Source: an uncultured bacterium (lineage in GTDB: Bacteria; Patescibacteriota; JABMPQ01; CAVVCK01). Taken from it: a stretch of 64,000 nucleotides of DNA. The stretch is from contig CAVVCK010000001.1 of assembly GCA_963746775.1 (NCBI GenBank), positions 483,151-547,150 of the forward strand. Reading direction: 5' to 3'. A model generated the notes under the pieces. The model searched no databases and had not been told where the DNA came from. It worked only from the letters and a program-made list of their open reading frames with translations. Positions 11,580-61,230 of the stretch are shown here, one piece after another; position 1 is the stretch's first letter; each line of letters starts with the position of its first letter. A program made the translations under genes and the position numbers.

Positions 11580-11654
11580 TGGTGCCGGGGGAGAGAATTG
11601 AACTCTCGACACAAGGATTTTCAGTCCTTTGCTCTACCACTGAGCTACCCCGGC
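11580..11654 (-). tRNA. tRNA-Phe (GAA), CCA encoded
   Basis: Reverse complement GCCGGGGTAGCTCAGTGGTAGAGCAAAGGACTGAAAATCCTTGTGTCGAGAGTTCAATTCTCTCCCCCGGCACCA folds canonically. Confidence 0.85.
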
Positions 11655-11758
11655 CAGTTAGAAGTTTTGGCAATTGACGTTTATACTATTGTTTCTAGTT
11701 TTACAACAATCAACGGTACAGGTTTTGATTACCAATACTTCTAACTGGCCACCGGCCC
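11654..11758. repeat. tRNA-5'-abutting hairpin element with 17-bp terminal inverted repeats, copy 2
   Basis: CCAGTTAGAAGTTTTGG ... CCAATACTTCTAACTGG is a perfect or near-perfect inversion. The left end overlaps the first base of tRNA-Phe. Confidence 0.65.
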
Positions 11759-11790
11759 TAAGTTAATATTATAATTTTTCTTTTCCCTTG

Positions 11791-11867
11791 GTGGGCGATC
11801 GAGGACTCGAACCTCGGACCTCGTCATTATCAGTGACGCGCTCTAACCACCTGAGCTAATCGCCCCC
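11791..11867 (-). tRNA. tRNA-Ile (GAT) in the 16S downstream spacer, CCA encoded
   Basis: Reverse complement GGGCGATTAGCTCAGGTGGTTAGAGCGCGTCACTGATAATGACGAGGTCCGAGGTTCGAGTCCTCGATCGCCCACCA. Confidence 0.8.
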
Positions 11868-12124
11868 TATGCCCCCGTAGGGGCCTTCTATTTTATGCCA
11901 TGACCTAAACAGAAAGACTAAATTTTCAGTCTTTCTAAATTCAAAATATATAGAAAAATGATAACAAAAAAGATTGGTAATTACAAGCAAAATTAATATA
12001 CCAATCTTTTTTATCATTAACAACTAAAAAGCGATAGGAGTGTCTCTGCACCATAAATGATGTGAGATCGACCACTATAGTCTATCGATAATTACAAATG
12101 TAATTACAAATAACTATTATCCTT

Positions 12125-13630
<1,506 letters not shown>

Positions 13631-13886
13631 AAAAATGATTTGAGAAAATAAATTCTCAAATTATAGAGATTGAGTCTTATGGTTTAATAAATTAAACCAG
13701 ACTCCGAGCTCTAAAAAAATTATAAAGCATGTTACATATCACCAAGTGATACATACATTATTGTTCCTATCGCTTTTCAATTGTTAATGTTCTTGAATCT
13801 CAGTACAAAAAACTACCTTAGATAACCTAAGATATTACAAACTTTTTATACTTAGTTTCAGTATTAATAATTTAATATACTAAATA

Positions 13887-14574
13887 TTACTTGTCAACAT
13901 TAATTTTACTTTTTTTCTGCCTAAATTCAGATATTTTTTTATGATTTCCTGATAATAATACCTTTGGTACCTTTAGTTCCTTGATTCTTGATTCTATATT
14001 CTTAATTCTAAACACTTCTGGTCTCGTATATTGAGGATACTCCACATAACCTTTTTTATTATGTGTTTCTTCAAATAAAGATTCTTCCTTGTTTAAAACA
14101 CCTGGAATTAATCTTGTCACCGCATCAATAATAGTCATAGCCGGTAATTCCCCACCAGTTAAAACATAATCTCCAACAGATACTTTTTCATCAATAAACT
14201 TTTCCACTCTTTTATCAAAACCTTCATAACGTCCACATAAAAAAACTATATTATCCAACTTAGAATATTTACGAGCCATATTTTGATCAAATTTTTTACC
14301 AGCCGGATCCATCATTATTATTTTTTGTCCCTTTATTTTTTTAATTTTTTTTAAAGCTTTGTAAATAGGTTCAATTTTTAAAATCATCCCCGGACCTCCC
14401 CCATAGGGACGATCATCTACAGACCTATGTTTATCTGTAGTATAATCTCTTAAATTATGTAAATTGATTTTAGCTAATTTCTTTTTTTTGGCACATCCAA
14501 TCATACCTGTATTAAAATAGGCTTCAAATATTTCTGGAAAAATTGTAATTATATCGAATATCATGTTTTTAGAA
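13887..14574 (-). CDS. trmD: tRNA (guanine37-N1)-methyltransferase TrmD
   Basis: MIFDIITIFPEIF ... RPYGGGPGMIL ... GRYEGFDKRV ... TGGELPAMTIIDAVTRLIPG. Start placed at the internal ATG; the track's N-terminal extension crosses a repeat. Confidence 0.75.
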
Positions 14575-14700
14575 ATTAGCTGTTTGGAAATTAGAAAATG
14601 GTAATAGAAATTTGAAACTAGAAAATAGAAAACAAATTTCCAATTTCTATTTTCTATTACTAATATCCATTTTCTATAATACCAATTTCTTTTAAAATTC
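14575..14700. repeat. TAGAAAAT-word imperfect palindromic intergenic repeat, copy 1
   Basis: Left arm GGAAATTAG ... TAGAAAATAGAAAA. Right arm ATTTCCAATTTCTATTTTCTATTA ... CCAATTTC. The same word family recurs at 20845..20972 and 61110..61230. Confidence 0.55.
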
Positions 14701-42112: not shown

Positions 42113-42230
42113 AATTTTTTATTAATTTATATTATAGTATCATACGAATTACTGTTTATTATAAATTTCTTCGGATCTAATGTCAAAAAACTTATTAACA
42201 GGTATTATTAAGAAGTATAAAATATAAAAA

Positions 42231-42277
42231 TACGCCCCTGTAGAGGCAGGTTTTAAACCCGTCTCTACAGGGGCGTA
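42231..42277. terminator. long near-perfect palindrome (TACGCCCCTGTAGAGGCAGG-TTTTAAA-CCCGTCTCTACAGGGGCGTA), bidirectional terminator-like
   Basis: 20-bp arms with an A-run upstream and a T-run downstream. Separates the Cys-rich peptide gene from the aminotransferase gene. Confidence 0.5.
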
Positions 42278-42300
42278 TTTATTAAAATTGCTTGTTTAGC

Positions 42301-43510: not shown

Positions 43511-43644
43511 GGGAGTAGAATTTATAAATTATAATGTAAAATGTAAAATTAATTATAAAACATTATTATTTTAATGTAAAAAATGTTTTGATTATTCTAT
43601 TTTCTTTGCTAATATCTACTTATAAATTTCGAATTCAAAAATCC

Positions 43645-44103
43645 GAATGACGAATAAATGACAAAAATAAAAAATGCCTAAGATAAAATATGATCTTGAA
43701 GAAAGGACGGCTATATTTGGTGAAAATATAATAAAATTTACAAGAAAAATACCAAAAGACCCAGTAAATATTTCTTTAATAAGTCAATGCACTAGATCTG
43801 GTACAAGTGTTGGAGCTAATTATCGTGAAGCAGATGATGCACAATCTGGTAGAGATTTTTTACATAAAATTAGTATATGTAAAAAAGAATCTAGAGAGAC
43901 AAAACATTGGCTTAGGATGATTGTAGAATCGTCACCAATCTTAAAAGAAGAAGCAAGAATATTATATAAAGAAGCTCAAGAGTTAAATCTAATCTTTGCA
44001 GCAATTATTAGAAATAAAAAAGAAAATGATTTAGTGAAAAAGCGTAAAAAGATTAGTCATTGAATCATTAAATAATTTATTCTTCATTCTGGTTTATTAA
44101 TTA
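43645..44103 (+). mobile_element. four-helix-bundle (IVS-protein) gene cassette bounded by conserved end motifs (CGAATAAATGACAAA ... TTCATTCTGGTTT)
   Basis: The same end motifs bound an ORF-less 77-bp copy at 57246..57322. GAATGAC ... GTCATTC inverted at the extremities. Confidence 0.5.
43674..44063 (+). CDS. four-helix-bundle protein (23S rRNA intervening-sequence protein family, TIGR02436-like)
   Basis: SQCTRSGTSVGANYREADDAQSGRDFLHKISICKKESRETKHWLRMI matches the family core (RSGTSVGANY.EA ... F.HKL.IA.KE.RET.YWL). Confidence 0.7.
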   Translation: MPKIKYDLEERTAIFGENIIKFTRKIPKDPVNISLISQCTRSGTSVGANYREADDAQSGRDFLHKISICKKESRETKHWLRMIVESSPILKEEARILYKEAQELNLIFAAIIRNKKENDLVKKRKKISH

Positions 44104-44117
44104 GTCATTCAAATTAA

Positions 44118-45185
44118 ATGTCTTTACAAATCGGCATTGTAGGGTTGCCCAATGTTGGCAAATCAACCCTATTCCAAGCCTTAACTAAAAAACAAGTAGA
44201 TAGATCTAATTACCCCTTTTGTACCATTGATCCAAATGTAGGGGTTGTTAAGGTACCTGATTTTCGGGTAGATAAATTAGCAGAAATATCTAAATCGGCT
44301 AAGAAAATTTATGCTACAGTAGAATTTGTTGATATTGCTGGATTAGTGAAAGGTGCTAGTCAAGGAGAGGGTTTGGGTAATAAATTTCTAGCAAACATAA
44401 GGGAAGTAGATTTAATTTGCTATGTATTGCGCTGTTTTAAAAATGATAAAATTATAAAGCATGATTCCAGTCAAGATCCTATATCTGATAAAGAAATCCT
44501 AGATGCAGAAATGGCTCTGAAAGATTTGGAAACTTTGGATAAAAGAATATCAGGACTAGAGCGCGAAGCAAAATCTGGTGATAAAGAGAAAATATTTGAG
44601 CTTGAAGTAATAAAGAAAGCAAAAGTTATCATTGAGCGTGATCAAGTTTTATATAAAGAAGATTGGGAAAAAGAAGAGAAGAAAGTATTGAAGCAATATG
44701 AATTTTTGACTTTCAAACCTAGGCTATATTTATTAAATGGAAATAAAGATGAGATTGATGAGAATGTAATTCAAAAATTTGAGAAAAATAATTGGCCCTA
44801 TTTAATAATAAATATATTGGAAGAATTTGATGCTATTGGATTAACTGTCGATGAGCGCAGGGAATTAGAATTACCAGAAAAATTAGAAATGGATAATTTA
44901 ATTAAGAAGGCTTATGAGAAGTTAGGCTTAATTACCTTCCTAACCACGGGTGAAGATGAAACTAGAGCTTGGACTACAGATAAAGGATCTAGTGCACCTC
45001 AGGCTTCTGGTGTTATTCATACTGATTTTGAAAAATATTTTATCAATGCGGAGGTGGTGAGCTATAGTGATTTGGTTGAAGTGGGTGGATTGGTTCAGGC
45101 TAGAGAGAGAGGATTAGTTCGAACTGAGGGGAAAGGTTATATTGTAAAGGATGGGGATGTAATTGAGGTAAGGAGTGGGAAATAG
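44118..45185 (+). CDS. ychF: ribosome-binding ATPase YchF
   Basis: GIVGLPNVGKSTLFQALT ... NYPFCTIDPNVGVV. C-terminal TGS domain. 355 aa. Confidence 0.85.
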   Translation: MSLQIGIVGLPNVGKSTLFQALTKKQVDRSNYPFCTIDPNVGVVKVPDFRVDKLAEISKSAKKIYATVEFVDIAGLVKGASQGEGLGNKFLANIREVDLICYVLRCFKNDKIIKHDSSQDPISDKEILDAEMALKDLETLDKRISGLEREAKSGDKEKIFELEVIKKAKVIIERDQVLYKEDWEKEEKKVLKQYEFLTFKPRLYLLNGNKDEIDENVIQKFEKNNWPYLIINILEEFDAIGLTVDERRELELPEKLEMDNLIKKAYEKLGLITFLTTGEDETRAWTTDKGSSAPQASGVIHTDFEKYFINAEVVSYSDLVEVGGLVQARERGLVRTEGKGYIVKDGDVIEVRSGK

Positions 45186-45235: not shown

Positions 45236-45367
45236 ATGTTTAAAGATTTTAAATTTATTCATTATTTTGGAGATATAATTATTTATATTTCCATTTTATT
45301 GATAAATTGGAGATATGTTAAATTATATTTCTAAATCAAAAAAAGCAATCATCATGATTGCTTTTTT

Positions 45368-45443: not shown

Positions 45444-45573
45444 ATTTCGCCCCATAAGGGCGTATGTTGTAGTTGTTGTAATTGTTCAATCGTTCACTCC
45501 GCTTGCTTGTTCTAATTGCACATTTAAAACACTAGAACAAATAAAACATTTCGAACATTCATCATTGCCGAGG

Positions 45574-56909: not shown

Positions 56910-57212
56910 TTAATCTGTAACTTTATATTGAATTCTTACTACGGTATTTTCACCAAATTCCTCATTAATTGCTTCAGTTATTTGGAAAGACATCATTTGA
57001 ATTTCATTAGCCCACAGGGAATTTTTTACCATTATCGTTAAAATATTATTTTGAAATGAAAAAGCCTTTACGCAACCTTGGCTTTTTTTATTTTTTTCTA
57101 AAATTACTTTATCAGAATAGTCACAAATTCTGGCAGCCTCAACCTGAGCTGAGACACCCGCCTTGTTTAATGATTTTAGAAGCAATTCTTTATTTATTTT
57201 TATGGGCAGCAT
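56910..57212 (-). CDS. DUF721 (DciA-like) protein
   Basis: 100 aa. Motif SLWANEIQMMSFQITEAINEEFG fits DUF721. Adjacent to recF, as commonly seen. Confidence 0.45.
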   Translation of the reverse strand: MLPIKINKELLLKSLNKAGVSAQVEAARICDYSDKVILEKNKKSQGCVKAFSFQNNILTIMVKNSLWANEIQMMSFQITEAINEEFGENTVVRIQYKVTD

Positions 57213-57245
57213 TTTAAAAAATGATTAATGATTAAATCATAATGT

Positions 57246-57322
57246 CGAATAAATGACAAATGTTTAATTTAGAATTTAATATTAGACATTTGTCATTTTA
57301 AATTTATTCATCATTCTGGTTT
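57246..57322. mobile_element. ORF-less miniature copy of the four-helix-bundle cassette ends (CGAATAAATGACAAA ... TTCATCATTCTGGTTT)
   Basis: Shares both end motifs with 43645..44103. Internal 13-bp inverted repeat AAATGACAAATGT/ACATTTGTCATTT. Confidence 0.5.
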
Positions 57323-57325
57323 TTC

Positions 57326-58414
57326 TTAATTCTTAATTTTTGTGATTTCAGCCTCGCTAATTAATTCCCTTCCAATAAGCTCAAGTTCAGTTGTCGTAAT
57401 TATTGTCTGTTGATCTCTAGCTATTTTAACAATATTACGTCGATGTTCAAAGTCTAATTCAGAAAAAATATCGTCGAGCAGTAAAATTGGCTTTATTCTA
57501 AAAACTTCTTTAGAAAAGGAGAGTTCGGCTAATTTTAGAGCTAAGATAATACTTCTAGTTTCCCCTCTTGAGGCAAAATAGCTAGCATTTTTATTTTCTA
57601 ATAACATTTCAAAATCATCTCGATGTGGTCCTACTAAAGTTCTATTTCTTCTAATTTCATCTGATAGTTTTTCTCTAAGTTTTTTTCTAAATTCTTCTTC
57701 GAAATTTTCTAAATTAATTTCTTTTAATTTTGATTTATATTTAATTTGTAACTTTTTTCCCTTCAAACCTATTTGCGAAACAAACTCTGGCAATTTTCTA
57801 TTTATAAAATTTATTAAATAGGCTCTTTTCCTAAAAATATTTTTGCTTAAGTTAATTAATCTCTCATTCCAAAATTCTAGTATGCTAGGATCAACTCCCT
57901 TTTCTTTTATTTCAAACAAAAGCTTATTTCTATTTAATAAGATTTTTTTTAATTCAGCTATTTCCTGATAATATTTTCTGTCTGCCTGAGAAATAACGAT
58001 ATTTAAATATCTTCTTCTGATACTTGGTGATTCTGAAATCAAATTTAAATCTTCCGGACAAAACAAAACAATAAAAAATTGCCCAACTAAACTAGATACC
58101 GACTTTACATTATTATTAATTTTTATAATCTTTTTCTGTCCTTTAGTTTTTGATAAATATATTTCTACTTCAGTTATATTGTTTTCTTTTTCAAAAATTC
58201 CTTCACATCTGGCAAAATCACCACCCCAATTGATTAATTCGTGATCAGCTTTAGCTCGAAATGATTTAGGTAGAGACAGAAATCTGATGGCTTCTAGAAT
58301 ATTTGTTTTACCCGAAGCGTTAGGACCATAAAAAACAGTAATATTTTTATTAAAGTTATGTTGAAAATCTGGGTGATTACGGAAATTGTGGAGTTTTAAT
58401 AGTTTAAGCTTCAT
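57326..58414 (-). CDS. recF: DNA replication and repair protein RecF
   Basis: Walker A FYGPNASGKTNILEAI. Signature and D-loop LLDDIFSELD. Confidence 0.85.
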   Translation of the reverse strand: MKLKLLKLHNFRNHPDFQHNFNKNITVFYGPNASGKTNILEAIRFLSLPKSFRAKADHELINWGGDFARCEGIFEKENNITEVEIYLSKTKGQKKIIKINNNVKSVSSLVGQFFIVLFCPEDLNLISESPSIRRRYLNIVISQADRKYYQEIAELKKILLNRNKLLFEIKEKGVDPSILEFWNERLINLSKNIFRKRAYLINFINRKLPEFVSQIGLKGKKLQIKYKSKLKEINLENFEEEFRKKLREKLSDEIRRNRTLVGPHRDDFEMLLENKNASYFASRGETRSIILALKLAELSFSKEVFRIKPILLLDDIFSELDFEHRRNIVKIARDQQTIITTTELELIGRELISEAEITKIKN

Positions 58415-61102: not shown

Positions 61103-61109
61103 TGTTGGA

Positions 61110-61230
61110 AATTAGTTATACAGAAAGTAGAAATTAGTAATAGAAAATAGAAATTGGAAATTTGCTTTCTATTTTCTAATTTCAAGTTTCTATTACCATT
61201 TTCCAATTTCCAAATAGCCAATTTCGTATG
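61110..61230. repeat. TAGAAAAT-word imperfect palindromic intergenic repeat, copy 3
   Basis: GGAAATTAGTTATACAGAAAGTAGAAATTAGTAATAGAAAATAGAAATTGGAAATTTGCTTTCTATTTTCTAATTTCAAGTTTCTATTACCATTTTCCAATTTCC. Confidence 0.55.

Follow-up and report, generated by a model that had tools for sequence, protein, structure and literature searches.

Among described systems, the closest to the locus considered here are the intervening sequences (IVSs) of bacterial rRNA genes. In Coxiella, a homologous S23p open reading frame (ORF) lies in the loop of a stem formed by 28-bp terminal repeats, with heptamers before the start codon, and the IVS is excised by RNase III (PMC4990558). 23S_rRNA_IVP ORFs have also been reported in 16S and 23S insertions of the candidate phyla radiation (CPR) (PMC11270868). 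Arrays of the heptamer TAACTGA, which end 1 nt before start codons, have been described in Beggiatoaceae, cyanobacteria and Bacteroidetes (PMC4679880), in a paper that makes no mention of S23, intervening sequences or helix-bundle proteins. The present analysis concerns a gene for a four-helix-bundle (4HB) protein at 43.6 kb in a 64,000-nt stretch of contig CAVVCK010000001.1 (henceforth the window), which is a segment of a Patescibacteria (CPR) genome with 32% G+C. We consider it fairly probable that this locus is an rRNA-IVS-like gene cassette outside rRNA, in which the 4HB gene occupies the loop of a hairpin, and that it has ORF-less hairpin relatives.

The four-helix-bundle gene and its closing stem

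The first-pass annotation of the window, made from the sequence alone, recognised a TIGR02436-type ORF of 129 aa at this position, and profile searches bear this out. The protein matches both PF05635 (23S_rRNA_IVP; E=1.2e-17, 64.4 bits, cut-off 33.8) and TIGR02436 (four helix bundle protein; E=9.6e-23, 80.5 bits, cut-off 24), and it possesses all of the invariant columns (38/38) of a 27-sequence family alignment. In a comparison of sequences only, the family profile also matched PDB 2RLD (five chains) with E=3.7e-19. An identical 129-aa protein is encoded on a 9.6-kb Logan contig, where it is accompanied by the same arms.

The same annotation had reported two end motifs common to this locus and to an ORF-less site at 57.2 kb (the mini hairpin), and both are indeed present at the two loci. 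The left motif, CGAATAAATGACAAA, occurs in exact form at 43651-43665 and at 57246-57260, with no further copy in the window even at two mismatches, and the right motif, AATTTATTC[T/A]TCATTCTGGTTT, is found at 44074-44095 and 57301-57322 with 21 of 22 positions identical. In 100 dinucleotide shuffles the expected number of exact matches to the left motif was 0.00 (0.47 with two mismatches), and that of the right 22-mer was 0.00 even when up to three mismatches were allowed. The similarity of the two loci is not confined to the 15-mers, as local alignment extends it to 27 nt at 89% identity on the left and to 47 nt at 81% on the right, the latter including the last codons of the ORF. A MAFFT alignment of both loci was dominated by the ORF and uninformative, so the comparison relies on local alignments.

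The left and right motifs are reverse-complementary to each other and thus represent the two arms of an imperfect inverted repeat composed of 7-nt units. A 17-nt arm consensus, C[CA][GT]AATG[AT]NGAATAAAT, is matched four times in the window, at 43643(+), 44075(-), 57238(+) and 57302(-), and the right arms of the 43.6-kb and 57.2-kb loci are closer to each other than to their own left arms. Folding of the RNA of positions 43615-44120 establishes the pairing of the arms at the cassette: in both the minimum free energy (MFE) and the centroid structure, 43639-43659 and 44075-44095 form a 19-bp stem with two single mismatches, enclosing the whole ORF. The 5' arm is situated inside a period-7 array (approximately 43626-43673), with 14 nt between the end of the arm and the ATG of the 4HB gene. 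The 3' arm begins 11 nt past the stop codon of this gene, and its end is separated by 22 nt from the ATG of the following gene, ychF; a second, weaker complementary register is found at 44096-44115. The period-7 autocorrelation of the arms is 0.52 on the left and 0.49 on the right, compared to a background of about 0.27.

The cassette is inserted between the gene for an ArsP permease and ychF, in the same orientation as the latter. Because of this shared orientation, and because the scan detected nothing resembling a terminator from the 4HB stop codon to the start of ychF, the cassette is most likely transcribed together with ychF. (Promoter and terminator counts in these scans were not above those in shuffled sequences.) In the shared RNA the arms would pair into the 19-bp stem around the whole ORF. 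By analogy with 23S rRNA IVSs, which combine homologous ORFs, 28-bp stems and heptamers, this stem would be a substrate for RNase III and would probably be cut within the stem. Such cleavage would free the mRNA of the 4HB gene while the host mRNA stayed usable, so that insertion into leaders and operon spacers would be tolerable.

Inverted heptamer arms across the gene family

The flanks of related genes were assessed in 80 metagenome loci that encode close homologues (53-73% identity), 72 of them with both flanks; gene starts were placed at the ATG nearest the start of homology. For each gene, dinucleotide shuffles served as the reference for the best duplex that its two 100-nt flanks, one on either side of the ORF, can form. 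The 72 homologues have a median z of -3.98, with 72% below -2 and 61% below -3 (the window and the relative L027, described below, are included in these fractions), compared to a median of -0.07 and 2% below -3 for 84 control genes from the same loci (Mann-Whitney p=1.6e-16). In the significant loci, the predicted flank duplex comprises a median of 59 pairs and starts a median of 3 nt from the start and stop codons. Inverted similarity of the flanks exceeded direct similarity in 54 of 73 loci, and the reverse was seen in 4. The arms are composed of tandem units with a period-7 signal and are common to unrelated samples; one example carries AATTTCTAATTAACCTAATTGACCTAAT upstream with its complement downstream, and CCGAATGACGAAT represents a second flavour. 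The association of 4HB genes with complementary heptamer arms is thereby established, and inverted arms hugging the ORF are the rule in this gene family, in line with the first-pass view that the ORF and its end motifs behave as a unit.

These genes are placed tightly between host genes and mostly co-oriented with them. The raw counts of co-orientation are 60 of 65 loci for the upstream neighbour of the 4HB gene and 54 of 64 for the downstream one, and the median gaps to the neighbours are 61 nt upstream and 66 nt downstream, or about one arm length. The 4HB gene is single in 78 of the 80 loci, and a second one is present in the remaining 2. A location in rRNA, for which a check had been proposed at first pass, is not seen: the sole rRNA of the window is a 16S rRNA (12127-13636, minus strand), the cassette lies outside it, and none of the 40 homologous loci scanned gave an Rfam match, rRNA included.

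In four loci (L065, L077, L098 and L115) the downstream flank repeats the upstream arm directly rather than in inverted form, and may be the upstream arm of an adjacent element. Only one of the 80 loci, L101, contains tRNAs; its 4HB gene (positions 187-1203 of that locus) lies between tRNA-Thr(ggt) and tRNA-Trp, and its flanks are the least complementary of the set (z=+2.5). Together with L027 it represents a second case of a tRNA spacer.

The first-pass treatment of the motifs as unique cassette ends needs to be revised in the light of these loci. The left motif of the window is one flavour of a vocabulary of heptamer-unit arms that is shared across genomes, with CCGAATGACGAATAAATG identical in L120 and TCATTCTGGTTTA in L043; the identity of the two loci of the window may therefore reflect arm type and not direct descent. 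Arm flavour is weakly associated with protein similarity (0.686 versus 0.632 identity, permutation p=0.0005), a relationship that is confounded by host relatedness and was not used as evidence.

Similar loci were found on plasmids of cultured bacteria. Eight such loci from cyanobacteria, Bacteroidota and Chloroflexota (hosts Nostoc, Dolichospermum, Anabaena, Pseudanabaena, Planktothrix, Bernardetia and Chlorohelix) have z values of -1.9 to -9.3, five of the eight below -3, and most display visible heptamer arrays. In Nostoc punctiforme, four GTCGGAG units face five CGACCTC units, and in Planktothrix TCCCCAA/TCGTAAA face CGATTTA/GGATTTA; the TCCCCAA units of the Planktothrix locus are what we take to be the STRR1 heptamer. 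The two arrays of the Dolichospermum locus are not simple complements of each other. The plasmid 4HB genes are wedged into operons in the arrangements cas2-4HB-cas1, csx2-4HB-cas1, drmD-4HB-pglX and helicase-4HB-methylase (loci L125 from Anabaena cylindrica pANACY.01, L126 from Pseudanabaena, L128 from Planktothrix, L124 and L129), and 4HB-recF. This habit of wedging into operons could yield spurious scores of PF05635 as defence-associated or CRISPR-associated. The legend of one figure in PMC10910872 includes "23S rRNA IVP" among the domain abbreviations for CRISPR-linked genes, a listing that might be explained by the same behaviour.

Orthologous sites in relatives and ORF-less hairpins

Relatives of the window were located through homologues of YchF and RecF with 78-91% protein identity. 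In the ychF leader, three of them (L038, L025 and L030, with 91%, 88% and 86% identity in YchF) share a ..CTGCTAATATTA.. block with the window; in these relatives the ATG comes only about 55 nt after it. At this site the window is longer by about 480 nt, which correspond exactly to the arms plus the ORF, and the absence of this block from three relatives is further support for its behaviour as a unit. In a fourth relative, L027 (87% identity in YchF), the left arm is present in the leader (33/36 by eye; 69-nt alignment), and after it comes an ORF-less hairpin of 125 nt, the core of which appears to resemble that of the mini hairpin of the window. The left edge of the window-specific block is marked by a leader or promoter-like block (Table 1) that is common to the ychF upstream regions of the relatives; the promoter scan showed no enrichment over shuffles for a promoter role of this block. 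As a separate observation, the ychF leader collects hairpins: the one in L027 (3865-3989, 125 nt) is composed of CAAnnnn units, and L039 has an unrelated GC-rich hairpin at 2935-2975.

The second site is the spacer between recF (57326-58414, minus strand) and dciA (56910-57212, minus strand), all 113 bp of which are occupied in the window by the mini hairpin. The latter consists of outer arms (57238-57254 and 57302-57318) and an inner 18-nt stem (57251-57268 and 57281-57298) with a 12-nt loop; its fold z is -5.0 on the plus strand and -3.7 on the minus strand, and its period-7 autocorrelation is 0.54. The first-pass annotation gave it a correct span of 77 bp (57246-57322), with the exception that the motifs are 40 nt apart and not about 50. 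The 13-bp inverted repeat that it placed between the motifs is exact (AAATGACAAATGT, 57251-57263, with its complement at 57286-57298), and when extended covers 18 nt at 94%. In L036, a relative from a marine sediment metagenome with 81% identity in RecF, the recF-dciA spacer is also 113 bp long, and its arm cores, CCAGAATGA[C/T]GAATAAAT ... ATTTATTCGACATT, are those of the window around a different interior. The spacer of L035 measures 33 bp and contains no hairpin; those of L032, L130/131 and L132 contain unrelated hairpins, composed in L032 of TAGTnnn heptamers. The spacer appears to be a hot spot for hairpin turnover. Too few informative positions were available for compensatory changes between the window and L036, and the further recF relatives (L130-L132) carry unrelated hairpins, hence no covariation alignment was obtained. 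The contents of this spacer differ in almost every lineage: some hairpins are AT-rich and made of heptamers and others GC-rich, one structure is compound and 200 nt long, and one spacer, of 33 nt, has no hairpin.

The third site, the spacer between tRNA-Leu and tRNA-Val, measures 34 nt in L025, 122 nt in the window, where it is ORF-less, and 507 nt in L027/L028. In the latter it carries a 113-aa PF05635 gene of a very different subfamily, closed by a stem; compared with the window, L027 has about 400 extra nt at this position (the 5' arm plus the 113-aa ORF). Thus a different 4HB gene is found with its own closing stem at another site. The absent, ORF-less and ORF-bearing states are established at the same sites in close relatives, and on this basis 4HB genes and hairpins are, judged from these alignments, gained or lost at specific transcribed spacers on a timescale of about 10% protein divergence.

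These comparisons also change the view of the 57.2-kb copy, which had been considered one half of a clean pair of full and empty sites. The copy is a paralogous hairpin without an ORF, located elsewhere, and since the same arms are found in the orthologous recF-dciA spacer of L036 it is old and resident rather than an empty site. Accordingly, the mini hairpin between recF and dciA is a resident, ORF-less member of the hairpin family of the cassette and has arms of its flavour. The ORF may have entered a pre-existing hairpin, or the ORF-less hairpins may be deletion products.

Further features of this kind in the window are included in Table 1. A solo right arm downstream of the terminator-like hairpin of ychF shares an exact 16-mer, for which 0.10 matches were expected at up to one mismatch, and no partner arm is visible near it. 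Two hairpins of TAGAAAT/ATTTCTA units end 5 nt upstream of the ATG of trmD and 2 nt upstream of an ATG at 61228, respectively. In all, at least four ORF-less heptamer hairpins or remnants (at 57.2, 45.5, 14.6 and 61.1 kb) are found in the window versus one ORF-bearing copy. The two TAGAAAT/ATTTCTA hairpins resemble copies of each other by eye, and their flavour is the dominant unit in the 4HB arms of the metagenome loci.

Table 1. Coordinates of the cassette, its host gene and ORF-less hairpins or arms in the window
Feature	Position	Strand	Basis
Leader/promoter-like block ..TTTGCTAATAT..	43585..43625	+	Conserved alignment columns; 69-nt alignment with L027
5' arm of closing stem, AAATCCGAATGACGAATAAAT	43639..43659	+	MFE and centroid folds of 43615-44120; arm scan
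Intact gene for the 129-aa 4HB protein (PF05635 / TIGR02436)	43674..44063	+	ORF; profile matches; family alignment
3' arm of closing stem, ATTTATTCTTCATTCTGGTTT	44075..44095	+	Folds; arm scan; right-motif match
ychF, host gene, with the cassette in its 5' leader	44118..45185	+	Pfam YchF-GTPase_C, MMR_HSR1
Solo right-arm copy, TTTTAAATTTATTCATTATTTTGG	45246..45270	+	25 nt at 92% to the mini hairpin
tRNA-Leu/tRNA-Val spacer, ORF-less homologue of the 3' flank of the L027 cassette	45444..45565	-	~85% identity over ~100 nt
ORF-less (mini) hairpin	57224..57330		Fold z; inverted repeats; arm scan; period-7
ORF-less heptamer-array hairpin, TAGAAAT/ATTTCTA	14571..14690	-	54-nt arms; period-7 0.55
Second TAGAAAT/ATTTCTA hairpin	61108..61225	+	53-nt arms; period-7 0.60

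The neighbours within about 3 kb of the cassette encode an aminotransferase, ArsP, YchF, tRNAs and L19. PADLOC gave no match to a defence system, and Rfam matches within the window were restricted to the 16S rRNA and tRNAs. The 16S rRNA gene is followed by tRNA-Ile and tRNA-Phe (window positions 11580-13636), with no 23S rRNA gene within the window, and the rRNA operon is apparently split. The spacer between the aminotransferase and ArsP permease genes contains a near-perfect, G+C-rich 26-nt palindrome (42228-42280, 92% complementary), which possibly acts as a terminator in both directions. In relatives, the interval from the ArsP permease gene to ychF contains, on the opposite strand, a conserved Cys-rich ORF of 127-141 aa without a Pfam match (..FFPNNLFF..KIC..C.C..CP.S..), located at 3395-3820 in L025, 3315-3698 in L027, 3-380 in L038, 2343-2747 in L039 and 1243-1656 in L040. 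The L027 copy looks degenerate, the ORF is missing from the window and L030, and no gene was called in L028/L029.

Alternative explanations and known systems

Several results count against an IVS-like cassette. The closing stem of the window is itself modest, with 19 bp and a flank-duplex z of -2.4, which places it in the weaker third of the family, and the 64 kb hold only two full arm pairs and one solo arm. No target-site duplication was visible on inspection at 43.6 or 57.2 kb, a weak negative given the fuzzy arm ends, and neither a recombinase nor near-identical multi-copy amplification was seen. With five 4HB queries, tblastn gave no ORF remnants at the ORF-less sites of the relatives. 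The relatives are 9-15% diverged in protein, such that their spacers are barely alignable and the direction of gain or loss is not polarisable. Among the mismatches of 45 stems, those compatible with G.U pairing on the sense strand numbered 46 versus 60, with no excess, and most mismatches are transversions; it may thus be as DNA that the arms become or stay complementary. Finally, heptamer arrays also directly precede the start codons of ordinary genes, and for this reason the arms could be a host leader feature and not cassette ends.

The finding on mismatches, which reveals no RNA-specific G.U bias, would suit a DNA transposon of the foldback type or one akin to miniature inverted-repeat transposable elements (MITEs). 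The heptamer arrays would then be terminal inverted repeats, bound at repeated sites by a trans-acting transposase or recombinase, with the 4HB gene as a passenger, and the ORF-less hairpins would be non-autonomous. Long inverted arms of short tandem units, the excess of ORF-less over ORF-bearing hairpins in the window (at least 4 to 1) and the occurrence of several hairpin types in the same spacers across lineages all agree with such an origin. Conversely, neither locus of the window shows a target-site duplication, no transposase was seen beside the approximately 100 loci examined (no search aimed at transposases was made), and the copies seen are few and diverged instead of many and near-identical. 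Moreover, the cargo is always the same protein family, with arms that abut the start and stop codons, which would be unexpected for random cargo. We regard a transposon of this kind as improbable.

An explanation without mobility appears to us to be improbable to the same degree. According to it, the heptamer arrays are a regulatory device of the host, acting in 5' leaders or between cistrons on translation or on mRNA processing or stability, to which a complementary array is added where useful, and the loci share a "word" of the host. The arrays that precede trmD and the ORF at 61228, at 2-5 nt from the ATG, are in keeping with this, as are the CTAxxxx heptamers before ychF in L030, L025 and L038 and before dciA in L032, the published arrays that end 1 nt before start codons (PMC4679880) and the conservation in place of the mini hairpin in L036. 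Yet bracketing by complementary arms is specific to 4HB genes, with z near 0 for controls from the same loci, and 4HB genes come and go at orthologous sites among close relatives. They are also wedged into unrelated operons of other phyla, such as cas2-4HB-cas1 and drmD-4HB-pglX, and homologous ORFs with the same stems reside inside rRNA genes, where regulation of this type by the host is impossible (PMC4990558, PMC11270868).

Chance resemblance among AT-rich, low-complexity intergenic stretches, to which the 32% G+C content, the 0.47 left-motif matches expected at two mismatches and the 23 matches to the right-motif core in 596 Gb might point, is refuted by the shuffle controls (0.00 expected for the exact 15-mer and for the 22-mer with up to three mismatches) and by the conservation of the arms in L036 and L027; at both loci, furthermore, the motifs are complementary to each other and share their order and orientation. 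We give chance next to no credence. The 23 matches to the 19-nt core were single and scattered over unrelated taxa (185,579 species genomes, the source genome not included), and the only one in the CPR lies within a coding ORF.

Beyond the IVS-like cassette itself, a more general proposal can be formulated, which we offer as a speculation with a modest chance of being correct. PF05635 genes and inverted heptamer arrays would constitute one family of selfish cassettes across phyla, devoid of a transposase, with rRNA IVSs as a special case. The pentameric 4HB protein would recognise the heptamers of its own arms, as DNA or RNA, and promote insertion into transcribed spacers or hairpin loops, and the ORF-less hairpins, together with the TAACTGA arrays and the cyanobacterial short tandemly repeated repetitive (STRR) sequences, would be decayed or non-autonomous derivatives. 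If true, this would explain the CRISPR-associated scoring of PF05635 and its presence inside defence operons.

Three decades-old puzzles may be one, namely the ORF-bearing rRNA IVSs, the scattered S23p/Avd-like 4HB genes and the intergenic heptamer arrays. The boundaries of the cassette are now explicit (arm, ORF, arm), three orthologous sites occur without the element, with an ORF-less one or with an ORF-bearing one in a clade of Patescibacteria with small genomes, and flank complementarity provides a simple statistic that separates 4HB genes from their neighbours; mobility and processing by RNase III therefore become directly testable. On the practical side, the cassettes inflate gene-neighbourhood associations (cas1/cas2, DISARM/BREX) and can be mistaken for repeat arrays.

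Other known systems were also compared with the cassette. Integron gene cassettes, which have a single attC site downstream of the ORF and lie in arrays next to intI, were rejected as candidates, given arms on both sides of the ORF, single cassettes in 78 of 80 loci and housekeeping genes as neighbours, and TIGR-Tas arrays were provisionally set aside on account of their protein and repeat architecture. The Avd proteins of diversity-generating retroelements have the same fold and superfamily, and PF05635 resembles Avd (PMC10053308), but neither a reverse transcriptase nor a template/variable repeat pair is found among the neighbours of the cassette. In eukaryotic foldback elements the arms, like those of the cassette, consist of short tandem units. 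The cassette has in common with MITE and foldback elements its inverted termini and the short ORF-less versions that outnumber the ORF-bearing one, and it appears to differ from them in that no target-site duplication was visible and in the low number and high divergence of the copies seen; its internal gene is not a transposase.

A further comparison is with STRR and TAACTGA arrays. Like the cassette arms, these arrays have a period of 7, are intergenic and end, in forward orientation, a few nt before a start codon, and their distribution is patchy without a known mechanism (PMC4679880). They are direct repeats before assorted genes, whereas the arrays of the cassette are matched by their reverse complement beyond a gene of one family, forming a hairpin.

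The rRNA IVSs, as known from Leptospira, Coxiella, Xanthomonas, Brucella and the CPR, are similar to the cassette in several respects. In both, the loop of a stem holds a homologous PF05635 ORF; the stem has 28 bp in Coxiella and 19 bp in the cassette of the window, and for the metagenome loci with significant complementarity a median of 59 pairs is predicted. Tandem heptamers just before the start codon, a sense orientation inside the host transcript and a sporadic distribution among relatives are likewise common to both (PMC4990558; PMC11270868). Unlike an IVS, the cassette is not located in an rRNA gene: it occupies the ychF leader here, and operon and tRNA-tRNA spacers elsewhere. Excision by RNase III has been demonstrated for IVSs and is inferred for the cassette, which in addition shares its arms with a hairpin that lacks an ORF at another locus, a protein-coding one. 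Our literature search, the coverage of which was incomplete, gave no report of PF05635 genes outside rRNA that are bracketed by inverted heptamer arrays, nor of ORF-less hairpins with 4HB-type arms that occupy other spacers. The rRNA IVS, the dispersal of 4HB/Avd-like genes and the intergenic heptamer arrays are each already known separately; what would be new is a cassette of the IVS type located in the leaders of mRNAs and in the spacers of operons and tRNAs.

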